A stretch of DNA of 11,654 bases from a virus, in the UHGV virus genome UHGV-1617644; one strand, written 5' to 3'. This document shows, in pieces, positions 2,437 through 9,362 of this stretch. The translations under genes and the position numbers were made by a program. The notes under the pieces were generated by a model. The model saw only the letters and a list, made by a program, of their open reading frames with translations. It was not told where the DNA came from and did not search any database. Each line of letters begins with the position of its first letter. The first letter of the stretch is position 1.

Positions 2437-2789
2437 TACGCCTCCGATGTAACAGTCGTTATTCCATAAAGAGTGTCGATTTCAGCGGAAAACATGACAC
2501 GTCGGGTCGTGGTATCCAGCGTCGTATTGAAAGAGAGGATTGATTTAACGCCCTGCGTTTCGAGGATGCGCTTACGGATCGCCAGGTTGTAGGTTTCCGG
2601 CTTCTGCTTACCGAGTACGGACTGGATCCACGGAGTCCCCTCGGTGGTGTCGAGAAACCATTGCCCATACCACAATTCGAATCGCGTTTTTACCGCCTGC
2701 GCCACGGCCTCCGGTGAGTTAATCAGCCAGGTGTCATCACCGCAGCCAAAGGTGTAATCGCCATCGGCGTCTTCACGTCTGTATCGCAT
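2436..2789 (-). CDS. Baseplate wedge/assembly protein (117 aa; gpW / gp25-position equivalent)
   Basis: Translationally coupled between the spike and baseplate-J genes; size typical of gpW-like proteins. Synteny only; sequence not recognised. Confidence 0.5.
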   Translation of the reverse strand: MRYRREDADGDYTFGCGDDTWLINSPEAVAQAVKTRFELWYGQWFLDTTEGTPWIQSVLGKQKPETYNLAIRKRILETQGVKSILSFNTTLDTTTRRVMFSAEIDTLYGITTVTSEA

Positions 2790-3541
2790 CAGTTTACCCC
2801 GTCGGTACTGCTTTCACCGCGCTGAACACCACCATGAGTGTGCGTATCATCGATTGGCTTGCCGTTAGCCTTCACGCTCCCCAAAAACTCAACAGCACCA
2901 GTGATTTTTGAAGCCACACCAGAAACCACAGACCCCACCATGCCCCCCATCCAGGTTAACAGGCCATGAATGGTTACTTTCTCAGAAAAATCAGCCAGGG
3001 GGGCAACCACATCAAGCCCCCCCGGAGCGACAATTTTAATTTTCCTGGTATCAGGATTAAGCTCAAAATAGGTGCTGCCGTCGTCACTACGCAACTGTGT
3101 GGCACTGGTATTAATACCGCTAATCTTCCTAGCCTGCGACTGGGGACCGACAATACAAAACGCATCCGATAAATCATGCATTCTGTCATCGACCGGCTCC
3201 TGTATCCCGCCACTCTGCCACCAGAAATCAATACAACGATCGGCAAAAACGACAAGACACTCATCCCCGGCTTTAACCGGAAAAGTCAACGTACAGCCTC
3301 CGCCGCGCGGAAATACCACTGGCACATCCACCAGCAACGGGTAATTTTTGGTAATGCGGTTACCGTCGTTATCCTTTTCAACCGAACGGATAGCTGGCTG
3401 CACAACCGCCGTCACCGCGTCGGGATCGAATGACTGAACAATGCCAGGCAAGGCGACACGGATCTGGTTCTTTGTTGTTTCCCGTTCAGATTTGAATGTT
3501 TCGGCAAGGTCGCCGCTGCGGGTCTGGTCAGATACTGCCAT
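2789..3541 (-). CDS. Baseplate central spike protein (250 aa; P2 gpV / Mu gp45-like position)
   Basis: GGAG 8 nt before ATG; first gene of the spike-wedge-J-I-fibre block; C-terminal Gly-rich region with a THTH motif that I recall resembling the His-containing apex of gpV-type spikes. Confidence 0.6.
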   Translation of the reverse strand: MAVSDQTRSGDLAETFKSERETTKNQIRVALPGIVQSFDPDAVTAVVQPAIRSVEKDNDGNRITKNYPLLVDVPVVFPRGGGCTLTFPVKAGDECLVVFADRCIDFWWQSGGIQEPVDDRMHDLSDAFCIVGPQSQARKISGINTSATQLRSDDGSTYFELNPDTRKIKIVAPGGLDVVAPLADFSEKVTIHGLLTWMGGMVGSVVSGVASKITGAVEFLGSVKANGKPIDDTHTHGGVQRGESSTDGVN

Positions 3542-3560
3542 TTAGTAGGCTCCAGAAAGC

Positions 3561-3590
3561 AAAAAACCCGCCAGATGGCGGGTTTTTATT
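3561..3590. terminator. Rho-independent hairpin terminator, bidirectional by sequence (AAAAAA-CCCGCC-AGAT-GGCGGG-TTTTTATT)
   Basis: Perfect 6-bp GC-rich stem (3567-3572 / 3577-3582), 4-nt loop, A-tract upstream and T-tract downstream. On the minus strand it reads CCCGCC-ATCT-GGCGGG-TTTTTTGCTTT, about 20 nt after the 131-aa stop. Confidence 0.65.
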
Positions 3591-3606
3591 AATAAATCAG
3601 TTAGAC

Positions 3607-4002
3607 CTAAACGGCTACATCAGTCTTCATTTGTTCCCATTGAGAAAAAATTGTTTTTACTTCCAAGATTGATTGTTGTGCCATTGCTTTATTTATGCCA
3701 CAACTACTTAAATCATAATCAGCCTCATTCCGAGCTAACCTCTGTTGCTCAAGTTTGTAAGCCATAGATTTTAGACTTCGAGGATCATAGGGTTCCAGTT
3801 TATTTTCTCCCTTATTTTTAAGATAAGAGATAAGGCTGGCATGATGATCCCGAGTATAAGCAGGAAGACTAGTTAGATTATCTTTAATTTCATGGTAGAG
3901 AGCGTAATATGCTCGTGAAATAGCATTACGATAACCAATCTCACAATCTTCAGCAAAACAACGTTCGGCCGAAGACAAAAACTCAGAACTAGTTATAGGC
4001 AT
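3607..4002 (-). CDS. Small alpha-helical protein with HEPN-like signatures (131 aa), second gene of the cassette
   Basis: ATG at 4002 lies inside the last codons of the 256-aa ORF; weak SD AAGAG. Contains RAYYALYHE (residues 30-38, an R-x6-H spacing) and LARNEADYD (residues 89-97, R-N-x3-Y where HEPN families usually have R-x4-6-H). Assignment is from recalled motif patterns, not an HMM hit. Confidence 0.7.
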   Translation of the reverse strand: MPITSSEFLSSAERCFAEDCEIGYRNAISRAYYALYHEIKDNLTSLPAYTRDHHASLISYLKNKGENKLEPYDPRSLKSMAYKLEQQRLARNEADYDLSSCGINKAMAQQSILEVKTIFSQWEQMKTDVAV

Positions 4003-4759
4003 ATTTACACTCTTTTAATCCATTTCTTTCAACGGAAAATCTTGCTATCAGGTTACAATCATCAAGCAAATCGATCGAGCAGATTTCATCAGCAAGTCGC
4101 ATATTCATTGCAACAACCCGCTCTGGAGACGCCTTAACCACCTCAACCAAATACGTTCCACCAGACGCCCCGTTAATGTCCGCGCGATATTCAGTTGACG
4201 GGAATTCAGCCATAACTCTGTGCACAGCCAAGGCAACTTGCCTATATTGCTCTGAAGAGCACCCTGAATTTTTATAAGCTTCATCCATATCGTTAATTAC
4301 CTCCTGCAAGAAGGTTTCTGCGTCATCCCTATGCTCTTCTTCGGATAACATTTTGCAATGACGCCCTAAATACTCCACGCATTTCGATAGTTTCCCTACC
4401 AAGTACGCAACGCCGCCAGCTTTGTAAGTAAACCACTTTGTAGGAAACTTATCAGCTAAAGAATATATGTAGTAATCCAGTTTTTCGAGTAGAGAAAATC
4501 GCTCGAGAAGTTTACAAAAGATCCGTGCGAAATTAACGTCAGCATGTGGAAGGATGACCTCAAGCGACTCAATCCCAAAGAGCACCTCACCCTTAGCTAT
4601 ATAAGCCAACGCTACAAGTGCTTCAGCCATAGGAGTATGATTAGAACCATACTCCGAAACCACTTCTCGGAAAGTCCACATATCAAGTGGCTCCCCACTG
4701 TTGATTACATTAATCAACTGGTCAAAACGCTCTTCGGCTTTTAGTTTTGGTCTCGCCAC
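3989..4759 (-). CDS. Hypothetical protein (256 aa from GTG at 4759; alternatively 230 aa from ATG at 4681), first gene of a two-gene cassette
   Basis: Low-GC ORF with no motif I recognise; no nucleotidyltransferase GSxxRG...DxD motif and no CxxC zinc-finger spacing. GTG at 4759 has a weak SD; the in-frame ATG at 4681 has GGGGAG 9 nt upstream. Its 3' end overlaps the next gene by 14 nt. Confidence 0.7.
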   Translation of the reverse strand: MARPKLKAEERFDQLINVINSGEPLDMWTFREVVSEYGSNHTPMAEALVALAYIAKGEVLFGIESLEVILPHADVNFARIFCKLLERFSLLEKLDYYIYSLADKFPTKWFTYKAGGVAYLVGKLSKCVEYLGRHCKMLSEEEHRDDAETFLQEVINDMDEAYKNSGCSSEQYRQVALAVHRVMAEFPSTEYRADINGASGGTYLVEVVKASPERVVAMNMRLADEICSIDLLDDCNLIARFSVERNGLKECKYAYN

Positions 4760-4789
4760 AGTTCACTCACTACTTATTTTTTGTCAGAT

Positions 4790-4817
4790 TTTATGTTCGC
4801 GTATACAGTTTAGTCAA
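4790..4817 (-). promoter_or_regulatory. Candidate sigma70-type promoter for the two-gene cassette (-35 TTGACT, 16-nt spacer, -10 CATAAA)
   Basis: Read on the minus strand in the 173-bp AT-rich intergenic region upstream of the 256-aa ORF: TTGACT (4817-4812) and CATAAA (4795-4790). The -10 matches consensus at only 4/6; judged by eye. Confidence 0.3.
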
Positions 4818-4932
4818 TCCACATCTGATCTACTTAGTAGTTTCGCACAAAATCCCCCTTAGAAAATGAATCTCTAGATTTTACTACGAGCCCATTTCCC
4901 TGAAAAATCGAGGATTTTCTACTCTAGTGCCA

Positions 4933-5394
4933 TTAGAACCCTTTTGATTTTGCAACACGAATACCACCAGCCCAACCATTAAAATCAATCACATTACTAC
5001 CGGGGACAGGATTATTTGTGTTGAAAGCATATCTAGCACCAATTTTCCATGCTTGCGGACTAACACTAGGATCCTTTGACAGTTTTATCCACTCTTTCAT
5101 ACCGTTGTAAATATATTCCTGACAAGAATCCCGGGTTCCTTTGCGGTTGGTGTATGCGTCCAAATCATTACATTGCTGGAATGTGTTCCTGATGATGTCA
5201 GCGAAATCATCTAAGGTCATTGTAAAACGTCGCCCATTCATTGAGAAAAAAGGCTTCACAGATGCGTAATGTTGCCATTCCGTAAACTTTTGCTGCTCCA
5301 TCAGGTCGGCTGCTTTAAATTCAAACTTACCTGGTTCGGCAAAAGAAGTCGTAGAAATCAGCATCGTTATTGCAACTATCACCTGTTTTTTCAC
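4933..5394 (-). CDS. Secreted/periplasmic protein of unknown function (153 aa), accessory gene
   Basis: Classic Sec signal peptide MKKQVIVAITMLISTTSFA|EP; two Cys in the mature part (possible disulfide). GTG start 2 nt after the hub TAA with GGGGAG 7 nt upstream, so translationally coupled. Gene is visibly more AT-rich than the flanking tail genes. Confidence 0.7.
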   Translation of the reverse strand: MKKQVIVAITMLISTTSFAEPGKFEFKAADLMEQQKFTEWQHYASVKPFFSMNGRRFTMTLDDFADIIRNTFQQCNDLDAYTNRKGTRDSCQEYIYNGMKEWIKLSKDPSVSPQAWKIGARYAFNTNNPVPGSNVIDFNGWAGGIRVAKSKGF

Positions 5395-5396
5395 GC

Positions 5397-6461
5397 TTAC
5401 GCTCCCCGTTGCATTGCCAACTGGCTAGGTATATCGCTAGCCCCACGCGCTTCGCACATCATATCCATGTACCACGCCTGGCCCCTTGTGTCGCCAGTGT
5501 ACATAATCCCGCGAACAATATAAACGCCATCCGTTGCGATGCTGGCAGGCTGCGATGTGGTGCCGCTTAGCGTAATATTTCCGTCCGTGTTCTGGTCGGT
5601 GATCTGCCCACCAGCCATCGCAATATCGTTGTTCGACAACGCGGTACGATAGACGGAAGCCTGATCCAGCTGAATGAGCCCGTTAACCCGGATGTTCGGA
5701 TTAATAAGAGCGCGGACGTTTACGCCGTTGCCGATGGTCTGCTGCGGCATGCCAATAAGCCCGGTAGCACTGTTGAGCACAATCGCTTCGTGAACATATT
5801 CATTAGTCGCCACCATCTGGCGCTGACCGTCCACGAATTGCCATGTTGCGCCACATTGCCCGGCTACGTTATCCATTAGATGCCGCGTCATGCCAAAGAG
5901 CACCCGCCCCCGGGGGAATACAGTAGCAGGCATTTCAGGCGTCAGGCCTTCGGTCACACCTTTGGCTTCGAAGTCTTTCATCAGCGCACGGTTCACATCA
6001 GCGACCGTGTAACCGGCAGCCAGCGTCTGTGAGGTTATACTGGTGGCAAAAGCCAGATCAGTATCTGCTGCCTGAATCAGGACGTAGGAATCAACCGGAC
6101 TGTCTTTTCCTGTGACCGAGTAGCGAATTTCACCGCTGAAAATCAGTCCGTAGTTGCGCCCATCACTCTGGCCCACGTCCGCCGCGTCAACTTCCCGCAC
6201 TGTCCCGACGTCGCTTGCCGACACCTCCGGCGCGATACCGTCGTAACCCGCAATCAGACGCACTTTCGAAAACTCCTGCCCGGTAATTCGGTTCACAGTA
6301 TCTGCCGAAAGGTTATAAATTTTGATAGTCCCTACCCGGGACGCGCTGCTGATGTTGAACCAGTCGATCGTAAAGGTGACTTTAAAATCACTTAGCTCAA
6401 TTCCCTGACCGTTCCCGTCCACAAGCTGCAGCTCGAAATGTCTCATCCAGTTCTGTGACAT
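5397..6461 (-). CDS. Baseplate hub protein (354 aa; Mu gp44 / P2 gpD-like position)
   Basis: GGAG 5 nt before ATG; position immediately before the spike module and size fit a hub protein. Synteny-based call. Confidence 0.6.
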   Translation of the reverse strand: MSQNWMRHFELQLVDGNGQGIELSDFKVTFTIDWFNISSASRVGTIKIYNLSADTVNRITGQEFSKVRLIAGYDGIAPEVSASDVGTVREVDAADVGQSDGRNYGLIFSGEIRYSVTGKDSPVDSYVLIQAADTDLAFATSITSQTLAAGYTVADVNRALMKDFEAKGVTEGLTPEMPATVFPRGRVLFGMTRHLMDNVAGQCGATWQFVDGQRQMVATNEYVHEAIVLNSATGLIGMPQQTIGNGVNVRALINPNIRVNGLIQLDQASVYRTALSNNDIAMAGGQITDQNTDGNITLSGTTSQPASIATDGVYIVRGIMYTGDTRGQAWYMDMMCEARGASDIPSQLAMQRGA

Positions 6462-6766: not shown

Positions 6767-7353
6767 TAGCCGCCCCCCAGTAATGACGCCACGTTACCCG
6801 TGATGCTTTTCAGCAGTGAAGTATCTGGAGGTTTTGTGGTTTTGTTGCCGCTGTTCTGTACCGCCGACGTGCTGGCCCCTTCCTTCATGTTGGTTTTATC
6901 CGCGACGGTAATCTGCTGTGTCCGGGAGATAATGACCTCCCTCAGGGTGAGGACGGCGGACAGGACGTTTTCGGTTGTCTTGTCCGTCGTCACTTCCAGC
7001 GCCCGGATCAACATGTTGCTGTACAGCCGTTTACCGGTTACCACATCGAAGGGGATACGGCTTTCCTGCAGATCCAGTAGCTCCTGATACGTCTGCTGAG
7101 GACTCAGGCCGAGCTGGCTGGTAGCCGTCAGATTACTGGCAAAATCCAGCAATGCGCCGCCACCGGCGAAACCAACCTCCATCACCACTTCTGACGGTTT
7201 TTTATAGGCATGATCAGCGACAGCGGCCCCGACCTCTACCGGATGCTCTGTTATTTCAAGCATATCTGTATGCTTCTCTGAAATAACAACACTGGGAACA
7301 ATCATTCCTATTTTTCTGCTCTGCTGATGAAAAAGTGTAGAGAGAATATCCAC
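6766..7353 (-). CDS. Post-tape-measure tail/baseplate assembly protein (195 aa), function unassigned
   Basis: GTG start overlapping the TMP stop (TAGTG) with GAGG upstream. Sits where Mu/P2-type clusters carry a tail-completion or DNA-circulation-like protein; no motif recognised. Confidence 0.55.
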   Translation of the reverse strand: MDILSTLFHQQSRKIGMIVPSVVISEKHTDMLEITEHPVEVGAAVADHAYKKPSEVVMEVGFAGGGALLDFASNLTATSQLGLSPQQTYQELLDLQESRIPFDVVTGKRLYSNMLIRALEVTTDKTTENVLSAVLTLREVIISRTQQITVADKTNMKEGASTSAVQNSGNKTTKPPDTSLLKSITGNVASLLGGG

Positions 7354-9362
7354 TAACCCACCCTCACCTGATTACTTCGCATGACCTGAGCATTTGCAGA
7401 CTGTTGCCGACGTGCAACCTCATTACCGACAGCGTGCGGATCTCCGCCACCGTAAATGTGGTAAGTATTTTGCTGGTTAACCTCTGTCATTTTGCCACTA
7501 ATTCCCGCCACGGCAGCCTTATTAATCAGCTCTCGAGAATAGATATTTCTTCCATTTTCATGCTGGATAATGCTGCTCATCAATGCTGACATGGTTTGCG
7601 GATCGCTCATATTCAGGGCAGCCCGGGGATCCACTCCCAGTCGTTGCGATACAGCCCTGATATACGCAGTTGTGTTGTTATTATCAGACGCAGGTGCCCA
7701 GGTAGAGATAATTTTCTCCACACTGTTTATTCCCCGTCCGGCGTACAGCATTAACTGACGAGCAAGAGCCCGTAATCCATCAAAAGCAGTTTCAAATCTG
7801 GCAAATCGCCCGCCCGGGCGTTCAAGAGAAGCCCCTGCCTGACCAGCAAAATTAAGGTTTCCCGGATTGTTATTCCGTTCTCCTCGTTTCGTAGCCTGTG
7901 CATATTGTTCCGGCTCATCATCACCAAACCAGCCGCGTACCGTCCGGCCCACACTGCGGGGATCGAATCCCCAGTGCTCTTTAATCCAGTCGGCAGTACT
8001 GTTAGCGCTGTCTGTAACCATCGGCATCGCTGACGGATTTTCGCTGCCCTGATTAAGTATCTGTTTGCCGATGCTGACGGCATCAGCCCAGCGGCCATCT
8101 TTGATAGCGTTGAGCAGGTCGGCGATCATGTTCAGCATTTTGCTGAATTCGCCCATCTGGTCGATGAAGTTGCTGAAATCCCACTTCAGGGACCATGATT
8201 TGGGGTCAATATTGAGCAGTTTCGCCAGCGCTTTCACCAGTTCATTAACAGACCCTTTCAGGTCACGAACCATCTTCAGCGCGGCATCGACCTCCGGCTT
8301 CCACTTGCCCCAGTCAATCAGGCTGTCGCCGCCTTCCTTCCAGGTCTGATAGTCCTCCCACAGAAGGGCAATCCCCGCCGCCAGCGCGGTAATGAGGCCA
8401 ATCGGCGACATCCAGAACGTACTGTTCAGAATGCGCAGCGCAATCGTCAGCGCGCCAAACAGCGAGATGAGCTCCCGCGTTTGCTTATCCAGCGATTGCC
8501 ACCAGGTGATAAGGCTGGATGTTCCCTCAATTAGCCTGAAGAACAGCCGCCCGATGATGTCTCCGAGCGCCAGAATGCCTTTTATGGCTTTCGTCAGGGT
8601 CTGCTCGATGCGCGGGAAGTTATCGAGGATGTGGCGGCGCAGTGTGTCCAGCGAACCCGCCAGACCACCAGCAAGATTAGAGCCGATTTTGTCACGGGCC
8701 ATGCCTGCCATCGCGCCGAACTCGCGCAGGGAGGTCATAAATTTGTTGGAGCTTCTGGCCGCCTCGTCAGCATTGAAGCCGATAGCTTTCGCCATTGCGC
8801 TGTACTGCCCGGAGAAGCCACCCACACCCCGGCGCATCGCCATAAGGGTATTTTCGTCAATGCCCAGCATCTGCGCATACTGGTTAGCCCGGTAATACGG
8901 CATGCCGCTGAGCTTCTGGCCTACACCTGTAAAAATAGAGGCCATGTCACGCATGTTACCGCTGGCATCCCGTGTCTGTACCCCTAGGCGATTCAGAAAT
9001 CCCTCTGCACCGGGATTGTTACGAATAAACCGGGAGAGGCTTTCCAGAGAAGAGCGCGCAGCGTCTGCACTGCCGCCAACCTGCGAAACCGCATAGCCAA
9101 TAGACTGAATTCCATGGACCGTCGCGCCGGTGCGCTGTGACGCCCAGTAAAGATTATCCAGACCGGAGGCGATCTTAGCCGTGAAGGCCACCACGGACAG
9201 TGCAGTTCCTTCGACGGCCAGCCCCATTTTGATGACATTTGCAGTTGTACCGGCGAGGACAGAACCGAACTTTTTCGCTCCTGCATCATCCACACTGAAG
9301 CCAAGCGAGACGAGGAAATCTTTAATAGTTTCAGCGTTCATTATCCTATCTCCATTTCTCAA
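7353..9362 (-). CDS. Tail tape measure protein (669 aa by track; likely true start at the ATG at 9341)
   Basis: Longest ORF, directly after the chaperone/frameshift pair; Ala/Gly/Ser-rich with hydrophobic central segments (e.g. LISLFGALTIALRIL..., IGLITALAAGIALLW). GGAG lies 8 nt before the second ATG (MNAETIK...), so the first 7 codons of the track ORF are probably not translated. Confidence 0.85.
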   Translation of the reverse strand: MRNGDRIMNAETIKDFLVSLGFSVDDAGAKKFGSVLAGTTANVIKMGLAVEGTALSVVAFTAKIASGLDNLYWASQRTGATVHGIQSIGYAVSQVGGSADAARSSLESLSRFIRNNPGAEGFLNRLGVQTRDASGNMRDMASIFTGVGQKLSGMPYYRANQYAQMLGIDENTLMAMRRGVGGFSGQYSAMAKAIGFNADEAARSSNKFMTSLREFGAMAGMARDKIGSNLAGGLAGSLDTLRRHILDNFPRIEQTLTKAIKGILALGDIIGRLFFRLIEGTSSLITWWQSLDKQTRELISLFGALTIALRILNSTFWMSPIGLITALAAGIALLWEDYQTWKEGGDSLIDWGKWKPEVDAALKMVRDLKGSVNELVKALAKLLNIDPKSWSLKWDFSNFIDQMGEFSKMLNMIADLLNAIKDGRWADAVSIGKQILNQGSENPSAMPMVTDSANSTADWIKEHWGFDPRSVGRTVRGWFGDDEPEQYAQATKRGERNNNPGNLNFAGQAGASLERPGGRFARFETAFDGLRALARQLMLYAGRGINSVEKIISTWAPASDNNNTTAYIRAVSQRLGVDPRAALNMSDPQTMSALMSSIIQHENGRNIYSRELINKAAVAGISGKMTEVNQQNTYHIYGGGDPHAVGNEVARRQQSANAQVMRSNQVRVG

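Follow-up and report, generated by a model that had tools for sequence, protein, structure and literature searches.

The low-GC block at positions 3545-5396 of an 11,654 nucleotide (nt) stretch of virus genome UHGV-1617644, the whole of which is referred to here as the window, is an accessory-gene hotspot with two slots, both of them filled, situated between the genes for the baseplate hub and the spike in a prophage. It comprises three open reading frames (ORFs) on the minus strand, the limits of which (Table 1) agree with the RefSeq calls in a 99.4%-identical Escherichia coli prophage. ORF153, next to the hub gene, occupies slot 1 and encodes a predicted exported protein; ORF256 and ORF131 occupy slot 2, the sequence of which reads as a moron, and encode a TPR-like repeat protein and a HEPN protein respectively. 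The anatomy of hotspot and moron can be put forward with high confidence, whilst the overall explanation, which blends this anatomy with a function for the cargo, is a probable one.

The region had been singled out in a sequence-only reading as a low-GC insertion between hub and spike, using hand counts of 33.3% GC for positions 3601-3660 and 60.0% for 5401-5460 that proved to be exact. Across the block as a whole the GC content is 40.8% (755 of 1,852 nt), compared with 51.3% in the rest of the window (chi-square 68.8, p ~1e-16), and when all 1,852 nt windows were scanned, the lowest-GC one started at 3541, coinciding with the reported block. The GC content at third codon positions is 0.24 in ORF131, 0.42 in ORF256 and 0.39 in ORF153, whilst values of 0.53-0.64 were obtained for the genes encoding the spike, hub, plug, Dit-like and tape-measure proteins. 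When codon usage was compared with that of the tail genes, ORF131 and ORF256 were the poorest fit among 15 genes, with ORF153 intermediate. Hence the block does differ from its flanks in GC content and codon usage, as had been claimed.

The variability of the site was studied in two sets of relatives: a close set of 84 loci having hub proteins at least 96% identical, made up of the window, eight E. coli loci and IMG/VR contigs, and a species-level set of 66 representative Enterobacterales genomes with hub proteins 44-96% identical. The gap between hub and spike is filled in all of the former and in 58 of the latter. The close loci display 17 different layouts, with gaps of 690-1906 nt, and that of the window is found in only three of them; whichever cargo is present, the gap has a GC content of 0.37-0.45 (median 0.43) compared with 0.55 for the hub and 0.51 for the spike. 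At the species level, eight loci are empty, with hub and spike separated by 37-66 nt and hub proteins 44-57% identical, and in a further eight the gap measures 347-417 nt and contains one gene; in the remainder the gap extends up to 2582 nt, and more than 50 protein families are found as cargo. It had been supposed that hub and spike genes are normally adjacent, which is true of the eight distant relatives with empty sites, but not of the close relatives or of most of the species-level loci. The combination of C01, a slot 1 family described below, with the TPR-HEPN pair is carried by, for example, E. coli E2348/69. Other cargo in E. coli includes a 113 amino acid (aa) protein accompanied by the same HEPN pair, a 154 aa protein with DUF2335, a YafO toxin pair, DUF4282 and a 241 aa lipoprotein, and the slot 2 cargo elsewhere includes YafO, Doc/Fic, a Mrr-type restriction endonuclease (Mrr_cat) and T5orf172. 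The flanks were detected in 353 of 5,426 complete E. coli genomes (~6.5%), just 10 of which hold at least 80% of a query consisting of the block and its flanks; the window allele of the TPR-HEPN pair is rare (10 of 5,426), and always found at the hub-spike site. The gap of one locus, L173 (Apirhabdus), contains on the opposite strand an apparent fragment of an IS21-family transposase, judged by reading the sequence.

This pattern bears directly on whether the three genes are simply baseplate structural or assembly genes of low GC content. They do sit in the tail operon, on the same strand as their neighbours, with ORF153 translationally coupled to the hub, and in some relatives a slot 1 gene of ~113 aa is packed tightly between hub and spike. 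Conservation of the same three genes as structural components across relatives had been named beforehand as the result that would overturn the idea of acquisition; instead, only three of the 84 near-identical backbones carry them, unrelated genes replace them elsewhere, and in eight relatives nothing lies between the adjacent hub and spike. Furthermore, slot 2 has its own terminator, and as slot 1 proteins bear signal peptides or lipoboxes, they would leave the cytoplasm, which is the site of virion assembly. A structural role for the three genes is consequently exceedingly improbable.

Mapping of breakpoints against 16 variants places the variable segment between ~3585, at a terminator hairpin, and ~5440, about 43 nt inside the hub gene: on the spike side all variants become homologous again at 3584-3587, and on the hub side homology ends at 5440. 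The limits first given to the block, 3545 and 5396, were therefore near these positions but require moving at both ends. The junction between the two slots lies between 4866 and 4940, and the slots reassort, the TPR-HEPN cassette being found after slot 1 families C01, C06 or C07, whilst C06 precedes at least four different cassettes. As the block consists of two independently exchanged units with an internal breakpoint, it is not a single insertion. Hence the proposal of horizontal acquisition stands with regard to foreign composition and the swapping of cargo between near-identical backbones, but not as one 1.85 kb insertion of three genes.

The manner in which cargo is exchanged is suggested by the flanks themselves. 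The last ~13 hub codons (5397-5440) covary strictly with the slot 1 allele and carry its ribosome-binding site (GGGGAG, 5402-5407, upstream of ORF153), and therefore the C-terminal tail of the hub is swapped along with the cargo. By contrast, the spike gene is mosaic and uncoupled from hub identity, with identities of 60-99% among loci with hubs at least 96% identical. In agreement with the original inspection, a repeat search found no flanking direct repeats; the sole direct repeat is an internal 13-mer, the sole inverted repeat in the block is the terminator hairpin, and no transposase, integrase or recombinase was found in the block or adjoining it. Taken together, the flank breakpoints, covarying hub tails, uncoupled spike and lack of repeats and recombinases suggest that related prophages exchange cargo through homologous recombination in their conserved flanks and not through transposition. 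Insertion by a transposable element, an integron-like cassette mechanism or a site-specific recombinase targeting the hairpin could appeal to the hairpin being a constant border, persisting at some empty sites, with a loop that differs both between and within cargo types. However, in addition to the absence of such enzymes and of terminal inverted or direct repeats, the borders at ~5440 and 4866-4940 fall in ordinary coding or spacer sequence, where divergence rises gradually with no fixed cut, making an origin of this kind highly improbable.

Table 1. Features of the hub-spike hotspot and its flanking genes, in order of transcription, with coordinates in the window.
Feature	Position	Strand	Details
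Baseplate hub, 354 aa, right flank	5397..6461	-	phrog_196 E 3e-88; PF22759 (E217_GP41) E 2e-4, under Pfam cut-off
Slot 1, ORF153, predicted exported protein	4933..5394	-	GTG start 2 nt past hub stop
Intergenic spacer, 36% GC; slot 1/slot 2 junction and cassette upstream region	4760..4932	-	Breakpoint mapping, 16 variants
Sigma-70 promoter-like site, TTGACT-18 nt-TAAAAT	4788..4817	-	Consensus scan, 10/12 matches; 29 nt upstream of ORF256 start
Slot 2 gene 1, ORF256, predicted sensor/antitoxin partner	3989..4759	-	TPR-like array ~8-185; alpha/beta C-terminal domain ~190-245
Slot 2 gene 2, ORF131, AF0298-like HEPN protein, predicted RNase toxin	3607..4002	-	Overlaps ORF256 by 14 nt
Intrinsic-terminator hairpin, AAAAACCCGCC-ATCT-GGCGGGTTTTT and T-tract	3556..3587	-	Terminator scan; 11 pairs, 6 G-C
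Baseplate spike, 250 aa, left flank	2789..3541	-	PF18352 E 2e-44; GpV apex motif; weak TIGR01644 (phage_P2_V) match

Slot 1 is tied closely to the hub, the start of its gene falling within a range from 13 nt upstream to 3 nt downstream of the last base of the hub stop codon. In the close loci it is occupied by one of three families: C01, of ~113 aa (66 loci); C06, to which ORF153 belongs (10 loci); and C07, a 241 aa lipoprotein (8 loci). The N-terminus of ORF153 consists of MKKQVIVAITMLISTTSFA followed by EPGK, from which a signal peptide was read by eye, and every slot 1 allele in this set was similarly found to have a basic n-region, a hydrophobic core and either an AxA-like site or a lipobox. 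Two cysteines, C75 and C91, are invariant in the ORF153 family alignment, and a 67%-identical homologue is found in Klebsiella prophages at the same place after the hub, with other cargo downstream. Of the 58 occupied species-level loci, 46 carry C01, and in six of these 46 it is tightly packed between hub and spike, without spacer or hairpin; it is therefore an old resident of the operon. The ORF153 family was considered as a relative of C01, but the two did not cluster by BLAST; what they share is position, coupling to the hub, a signal peptide and two invariant cysteines. Since the slot is usually held by this conserved resident, ORF153 represents a replacement rather than an addition.

The slot 1 protein would be translationally coupled to the hub and made along with the late tail operon, and the production of an exported protein together with tail genes suggests an action in the periplasm. 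That is where ORF153 most likely acts, for example in superinfection exclusion, although this is a guess; the slot 1 proteins exhibited no sequence relation to known exclusion proteins in Pfam, the PHROGs function classes, NCBIfam or PDB. In other genera, at loci L124, L139 (N15) and L129 (N35), slot 1 encodes larger lipoproteins of 290-380 aa with a C-terminal part that, judged from the sequences, resembles C01 or C07, as if the small exported protein had been fused to an extra N-terminal domain.

Slot 2, judged by its sequence features, is a moron, composed of a promoter-like site, ORF256, the overlapping ORF131 and a strong terminator. The promoter-like site belongs to this slot and not to ORF153. 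It falls in a 33 nt block (GGATTGACT...ATAAAAT) that is identical between the window and L002 alleles, which are otherwise ~84-88% identical and have diverged on both sides of it; the site is partly conserved in the Yersinia homologue, conservation across genera being only partial, and other cassette types bear promoter-like sites of their own. The terminator hairpin has a predicted RNA folding energy of -19.6 kcal/mol (z -3.9), with none of 200 shuffled sequences being as stable. It is followed immediately by the ribosome-binding site and ATG of the spike gene, and forms the left border of the variable segment. In 79 surveyed sequences upstream of the spike, the stem is constant and the loop variable, except in L073 and L075. 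These two loci had been thought to have an empty slot 2, which was rejected on finding a gene on the opposite strand (~7400-7840 in these loci) with a 94 aa product containing a CxxC...CxxC motif; in these loci the conserved hairpin is missing, and C01 is followed by another terminator, which is bidirectional.

The hairpin is also missing where C01 alone is coupled to the spike, and no such hairpin follows a homologous TPR-HEPN pair in a P2-type prophage, but four of the eight empty junctions (L177, L150, L167 and L160) keep an ACCCGC...GCGGGTTTTT hairpin. It is therefore a property of the site and not of the cassette, and at the empty sites may be either the scar of lost cargo or a pre-existing landing pad. 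In a late operon regulated by Q, as in lambda, a terminator stops transcripts made in the prophage state and is read through in lytic growth. By analogy, the sigma-70 promoter-like site of slot 2 would drive ORF256 and ORF131 from the prophage, and the terminator would halt prophage-state transcripts ahead of the spike whilst allowing Q-antiterminated late transcription to pass through.

The first protein of the slot 2 cassette, ORF256, is modelled as approximately ten paired helices followed by a three-stranded alpha/beta domain (predicted local distance difference test score, pLDDT, 89.3; predicted template modelling score, pTM, 0.85). No family was recognised for it in Pfam, PADLOC or NCBIfam; indeed, searches of all three cargo proteins against these databases and PHROGs returned only a sub-threshold HEPN match and PHROGs of unknown function. 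Close homologues of ORF256 form 10 clusters, and a collection of 1.84 billion proteins yields just 56 representatives of it at 50% identity, most of them full-length (248-286 aa) and the rest fragments of 71-147 aa. The C-terminal domain was considered as a possible minimal nucleotidyltransferase (MNT) domain, a reading that was rejected, as there was no nucleotidyltransferase match in Pfam or NCBIfam and, in our own reading, the spacing of its GxSGG...DLLDD residues does not fit the GS-x9-13-DxD pattern.

A second version of the pair is represented by C03, in which a 243 aa protein is a distant homologue of ORF256 (hhalign E 1e-5; phrog_17809 E 7e-12) and its 142 aa HEPN partner shows homology to ORF131 (E 1e-11). 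One or other of the two versions occupies slot 2 in 37 of the 84 close loci and seven of the 66 species-level loci, with L135 being an eighth that has a possible, unconfirmed pair. All of the cases examined, which come from E. coli, Yersinia, Klebsiella, Citrobacter, Serratia and others, have a HEPN-like gene directly downstream of the TPR-like gene and overlapping it; within the same hotspot, this arrangement occurs in Yersinia (58% identity) and Klebsiella (76%). The two genes also stay together outside of it, across a total of three phage backbones. In a P2/186-like prophage the pair adjoins the integrase at the prophage end, its HEPN partner being 38% identical and keeping the motifs RNKADY and SHH, and in Klebsiella phage ST405-OXA48phi1.3 (MK416008) the pair lies upstream of the tape-measure gene. 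The HEPN-like gene of the latter (L180, 4752-5129) is split into two ORFs in GenBank, but a tblastn search recovered an intact match of 126 residues with 46% identity to ORF131.

ORF131 fits the AF0298-like branch of HEPN proteins. Its AlphaFold2 model is a helical bundle (pLDDT 83.7) with the four-helix up-and-down arrangement of the HEPN fold, and its family profile matches PDB entries 9xbd (a "HEPN domain-containing protein") and 2hsb with E values of 0.003-0.004 and a shared RNxxDY motif, AF0298 being the closest structure. Six of 12 homologues match PF05168 with E values of 0.01 or below, the best being 2e-6. The homologues of ORF131 fall into 12 clusters, at 44-99% identity, and the residues invariant among them include R25, N26, R30, H37, D52, H53, H54, R88, R91, N92, D95 and Y96. 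In the motif R91-N-E-A-D-Y96, a tyrosine replaces the histidine of the canonical Rx4-6H motif in all 12 family members; D52-H53-H54 lies at the start of helix 3. PDB entries 9xbd and 9xbc are solved structures of 125-131 aa "HEPN domain-containing proteins" having an RNxSDYDL motif as in ORF131, and in one of them the tyrosine is changed to phenylalanine; this residue is apparently being probed, although no paper was found.

The replacement of the histidine raises the alternative that ORF131 is a catalytically dead HEPN fold, with the pair being non-toxic and serving in prophage gene regulation, RNA binding or counter-defence, particularly as HEPN domains without catalytic residues can be binding modules (PMC3710099). 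However, AF0298-like and AbiV HEPN domains show exactly this pattern, having kept the arginine and lost the histidine, with a conserved histidine between helices 2 and 3, and an alternative active site has been predicted for them (Anantharaman et al., PMC3710099). Furthermore, the invariance of R91, N92, D95, Y96 and D52-H53-H54, together with the retention of both motifs in the distant P2-type homologue, is more than a scaffold needs. An inactive pair is therefore considered improbable, and ORF131 would instead be a non-canonical HEPN RNase using R-x4-Y and an alternative histidine.

On balance, a toxin-antitoxin or defence function for ORF256 and ORF131 is slightly favoured. This is suggested by the gene order, with a large partner upstream and a small, overlapping HEPN gene downstream; by the architecture of the partner, which is that of a protein-binding sensor; and by the confinement of the pair to phage accessory sites, where it is found beside YafO, Doc/Fic, Mrr-type and T5orf172 cargo. 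ORF256 would restrain ORF131 and release it when the TPR repeats bind a protein of an infecting phage, such that the cassette would act as an abortive-infection module protecting the lysogen from other phages. A plainer alternative is that the pair is an addiction toxin-antitoxin module stabilising itself or the prophage, with no role against other phages. In favour of this, the unit consists of two overlapping genes with the toxin-type HEPN gene downstream; YafO and Doc toxin pairs occupy the same slot at other loci, and no known defence system matches the pair. The usual neutraliser of HEPN toxins is an MNT nucleotidyltransferase, whereas the upstream partner here is a 256 aa TPR repeat protein with the architecture of a sensor, being neither an MNT protein nor a small DNA-binding antitoxin, and the pair is found only in phage accessory sites. 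Pure addiction is accordingly rather unlikely, although many toxin-antitoxin modules double as abortive-infection systems, and hence the two readings are not exclusive.

Several observations weigh against the explanation as a whole. As a system, the TPR-HEPN pair is absent from Pfam, NCBIfam and PADLOC 2.0, where the only match was to HEPN_IX (E 0.003), and no description or published test of either the pair or the hotspot was found in the open-access literature or the DefensePredictor supplements. Across the cargo as a whole, PADLOC matches were weak and limited to HEPN_IX and PycTM, with no demonstrable enrichment of known defence systems in the hotspot. The window copy of ORF131 scores 18.5 bits against PF05168, under the cut-off of 22, a Foldseek search with it gave no significant match (best E 0.5), and the missing canonical histidine means it could be catalytically inactive. 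ORF153 had no match in Pfam, PHROGs, PADLOC, NCBIfam or PDB, so that a role for it in exclusion is speculation. The promoter is a consensus match only, from a scan that returned seven promoter-like sites where 4.5 are expected by chance, and the persistence of the hairpin at half of the empty sites indicates that it is not strictly tied to cargo.

A more ambitious proposal is correspondingly tentative, and we consider it possible but not the likelier outcome: that the hub-spike junction of SEN34-like prophages is an unmined defence hotspot of Enterobacterales, with the TPR-HEPN pair, its commonest cargo, being a new two-component abortive-infection system and C01, ORF153 and C07 forming a new, rapidly replaced class of periplasmic exclusion proteins. 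Under this same proposal, a free-standing TPR sensor would gate a non-canonical HEPN RNase, with R-x4-Y and an alternative histidine, upon recognition of an invading phage's protein.

The phage carrying the hotspot is a lambdoid-regulated, SEN34/Brunovirus-like myovirus prophage of Enterobacterales with a baseplate of the E217/Pam3 type. The genes of the window, which are all encoded on the minus strand, make up a module for a contractile tail and baseplate, in the order, from high to low coordinates, of sheath, tube, chaperone, tape measure, Dit-like, plug, hub, the low-GC block, spike, sheath-initiator-like, baseplate J, wedge and fibre; the baseplate proteins match E217/Pam3 families. The 99.4%-identical copy, in E. 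coli PS1Thumoskin9, is within a prophage of ~30 kb that has a Q antiterminator, a lambda-family holin, TerL, head genes, DUF3383/DUF3277 sheath and tube genes and the tail module, with the late genes on one strand. Among phage records, the closest to it belong to Escherichia phages vB_EcoM-606R2, -689R2 and -611R5, together with Yersinia phage YP3 and Salmonella phage SEN34 (Brunovirus). Assignment to a Mu-type module, as initially suggested, is thus incorrect, and no transposase genes were seen in the backbone.

Two further observations concern other parts of the tail module. The distal baseplate and fibre genes (18-578 and 560-1240) have GC contents of 43-47% and third-position values of 0.37-0.42, under those of the central tail genes, and just beyond them the full prophage carries genes for a Pin invertase and for tail-fibre assembly, which suggests that positions 1-1240 of the window represent a second mosaic, host-range region. 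The tape measure (7353-9362) is labelled a lytic transglycosylase in RefSeq and has relatives with PF01464 (SLT), and a small DUF6889 gene overlaps its start; the muralytic annotation could matter if the exported slot 1 proteins target muralytic activity borne by the tail.

Fixed cargo sites in prophages, such as the hotspots of P2 and P4, are among the best sources of new anti-phage systems. The hub-spike site is unusual in being inside a baseplate gene block, holds dozens of unannotated families and is found in many Enterobacterales besides E. coli; its conserved flanks, namely the 3' end of the hub gene on one side and the hairpin and start of the spike gene on the other, make automated mining easy. 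The TPR-HEPN pair offers a testable case of a HEPN toxin without the canonical histidine and with control by something other than MNT, whilst the near-constant presence of an exported protein beside the hub raises the question of what a tail operon needs in the periplasm. With regard to annotation, the three genes should not be named as tail proteins.

Similarities to the HEPN systems already described are partial. As with the HEPN-MNT modules (HepT/MntA, type VII) and AF0298/UPF0332 proteins, ORF131 is a small single-domain HEPN protein encoded downstream in an overlapping pair, with a conserved tyrosine by the catalytic motif; unlike type VII, the partner is a TPR array with a small C-terminal domain, and the motif is R-x4-Y rather than R-x4-6-H. 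HepS of Gifsy-1 (PMC13043305) and Tha of S. aureus prophages (PMC11087260) are likewise HEPN effectors in accessory sites of temperate phages. HepS has no partner, consisting of one protein in which the R-x4-6-H motif is canonical (PMC13043305), whereas in the present case there are two genes, one encoding a separate TPR protein, and no sequence relationship to HepS or Tha was found. With respect to slot 1, its products resemble Sp of T4, Llp of T5 and Cor of phi80 and N15, which are periplasmic or lipoprotein superinfection-exclusion factors, in being small, phage-encoded and either exported or lipoproteins, with genes beside those of the host-penetration apparatus; they differ in having no sequence similarity to any of them.

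P2-like prophages and P4-like satellites have antiviral hotspots, for which recombination in the flanks has been proposed (Rousset et al. 2022, PMC9122126). These are alike in being fixed sites between core genes, with diverse cargo in near-identical backbones, much of it uncharacterised and some consisting of toxins or nucleases, and a direct link is provided by the TPR-HEPN homologue that adjoins the integrase of a P2/186-like prophage. The differences lie in the phage family, the location between hub and spike, and the fact that PADLOC hardly detects known systems here. The concept of the moron reportedly goes back to Hendrix and Juhala, with lambdoid examples including lom and bor of lambda and the moron between tail genes in HK97 and HK022. 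These too are extra units of deviating base composition, with a promoter-like site and terminator, lying between late genes that are adjacent in relatives, in a placement that would allow expression from the prophage without the neighbouring late genes and would be read through by the Q-antiterminated operon. In contrast to them, the present site has two juxtaposed slots, one coupled to the hub and one autonomous, inside the baseplate block of a myovirus. Hence, whilst both morons and prophage cargo hotspots are already well known, the hub-spike site and its TPR-HEPN pair are a new instance of them.

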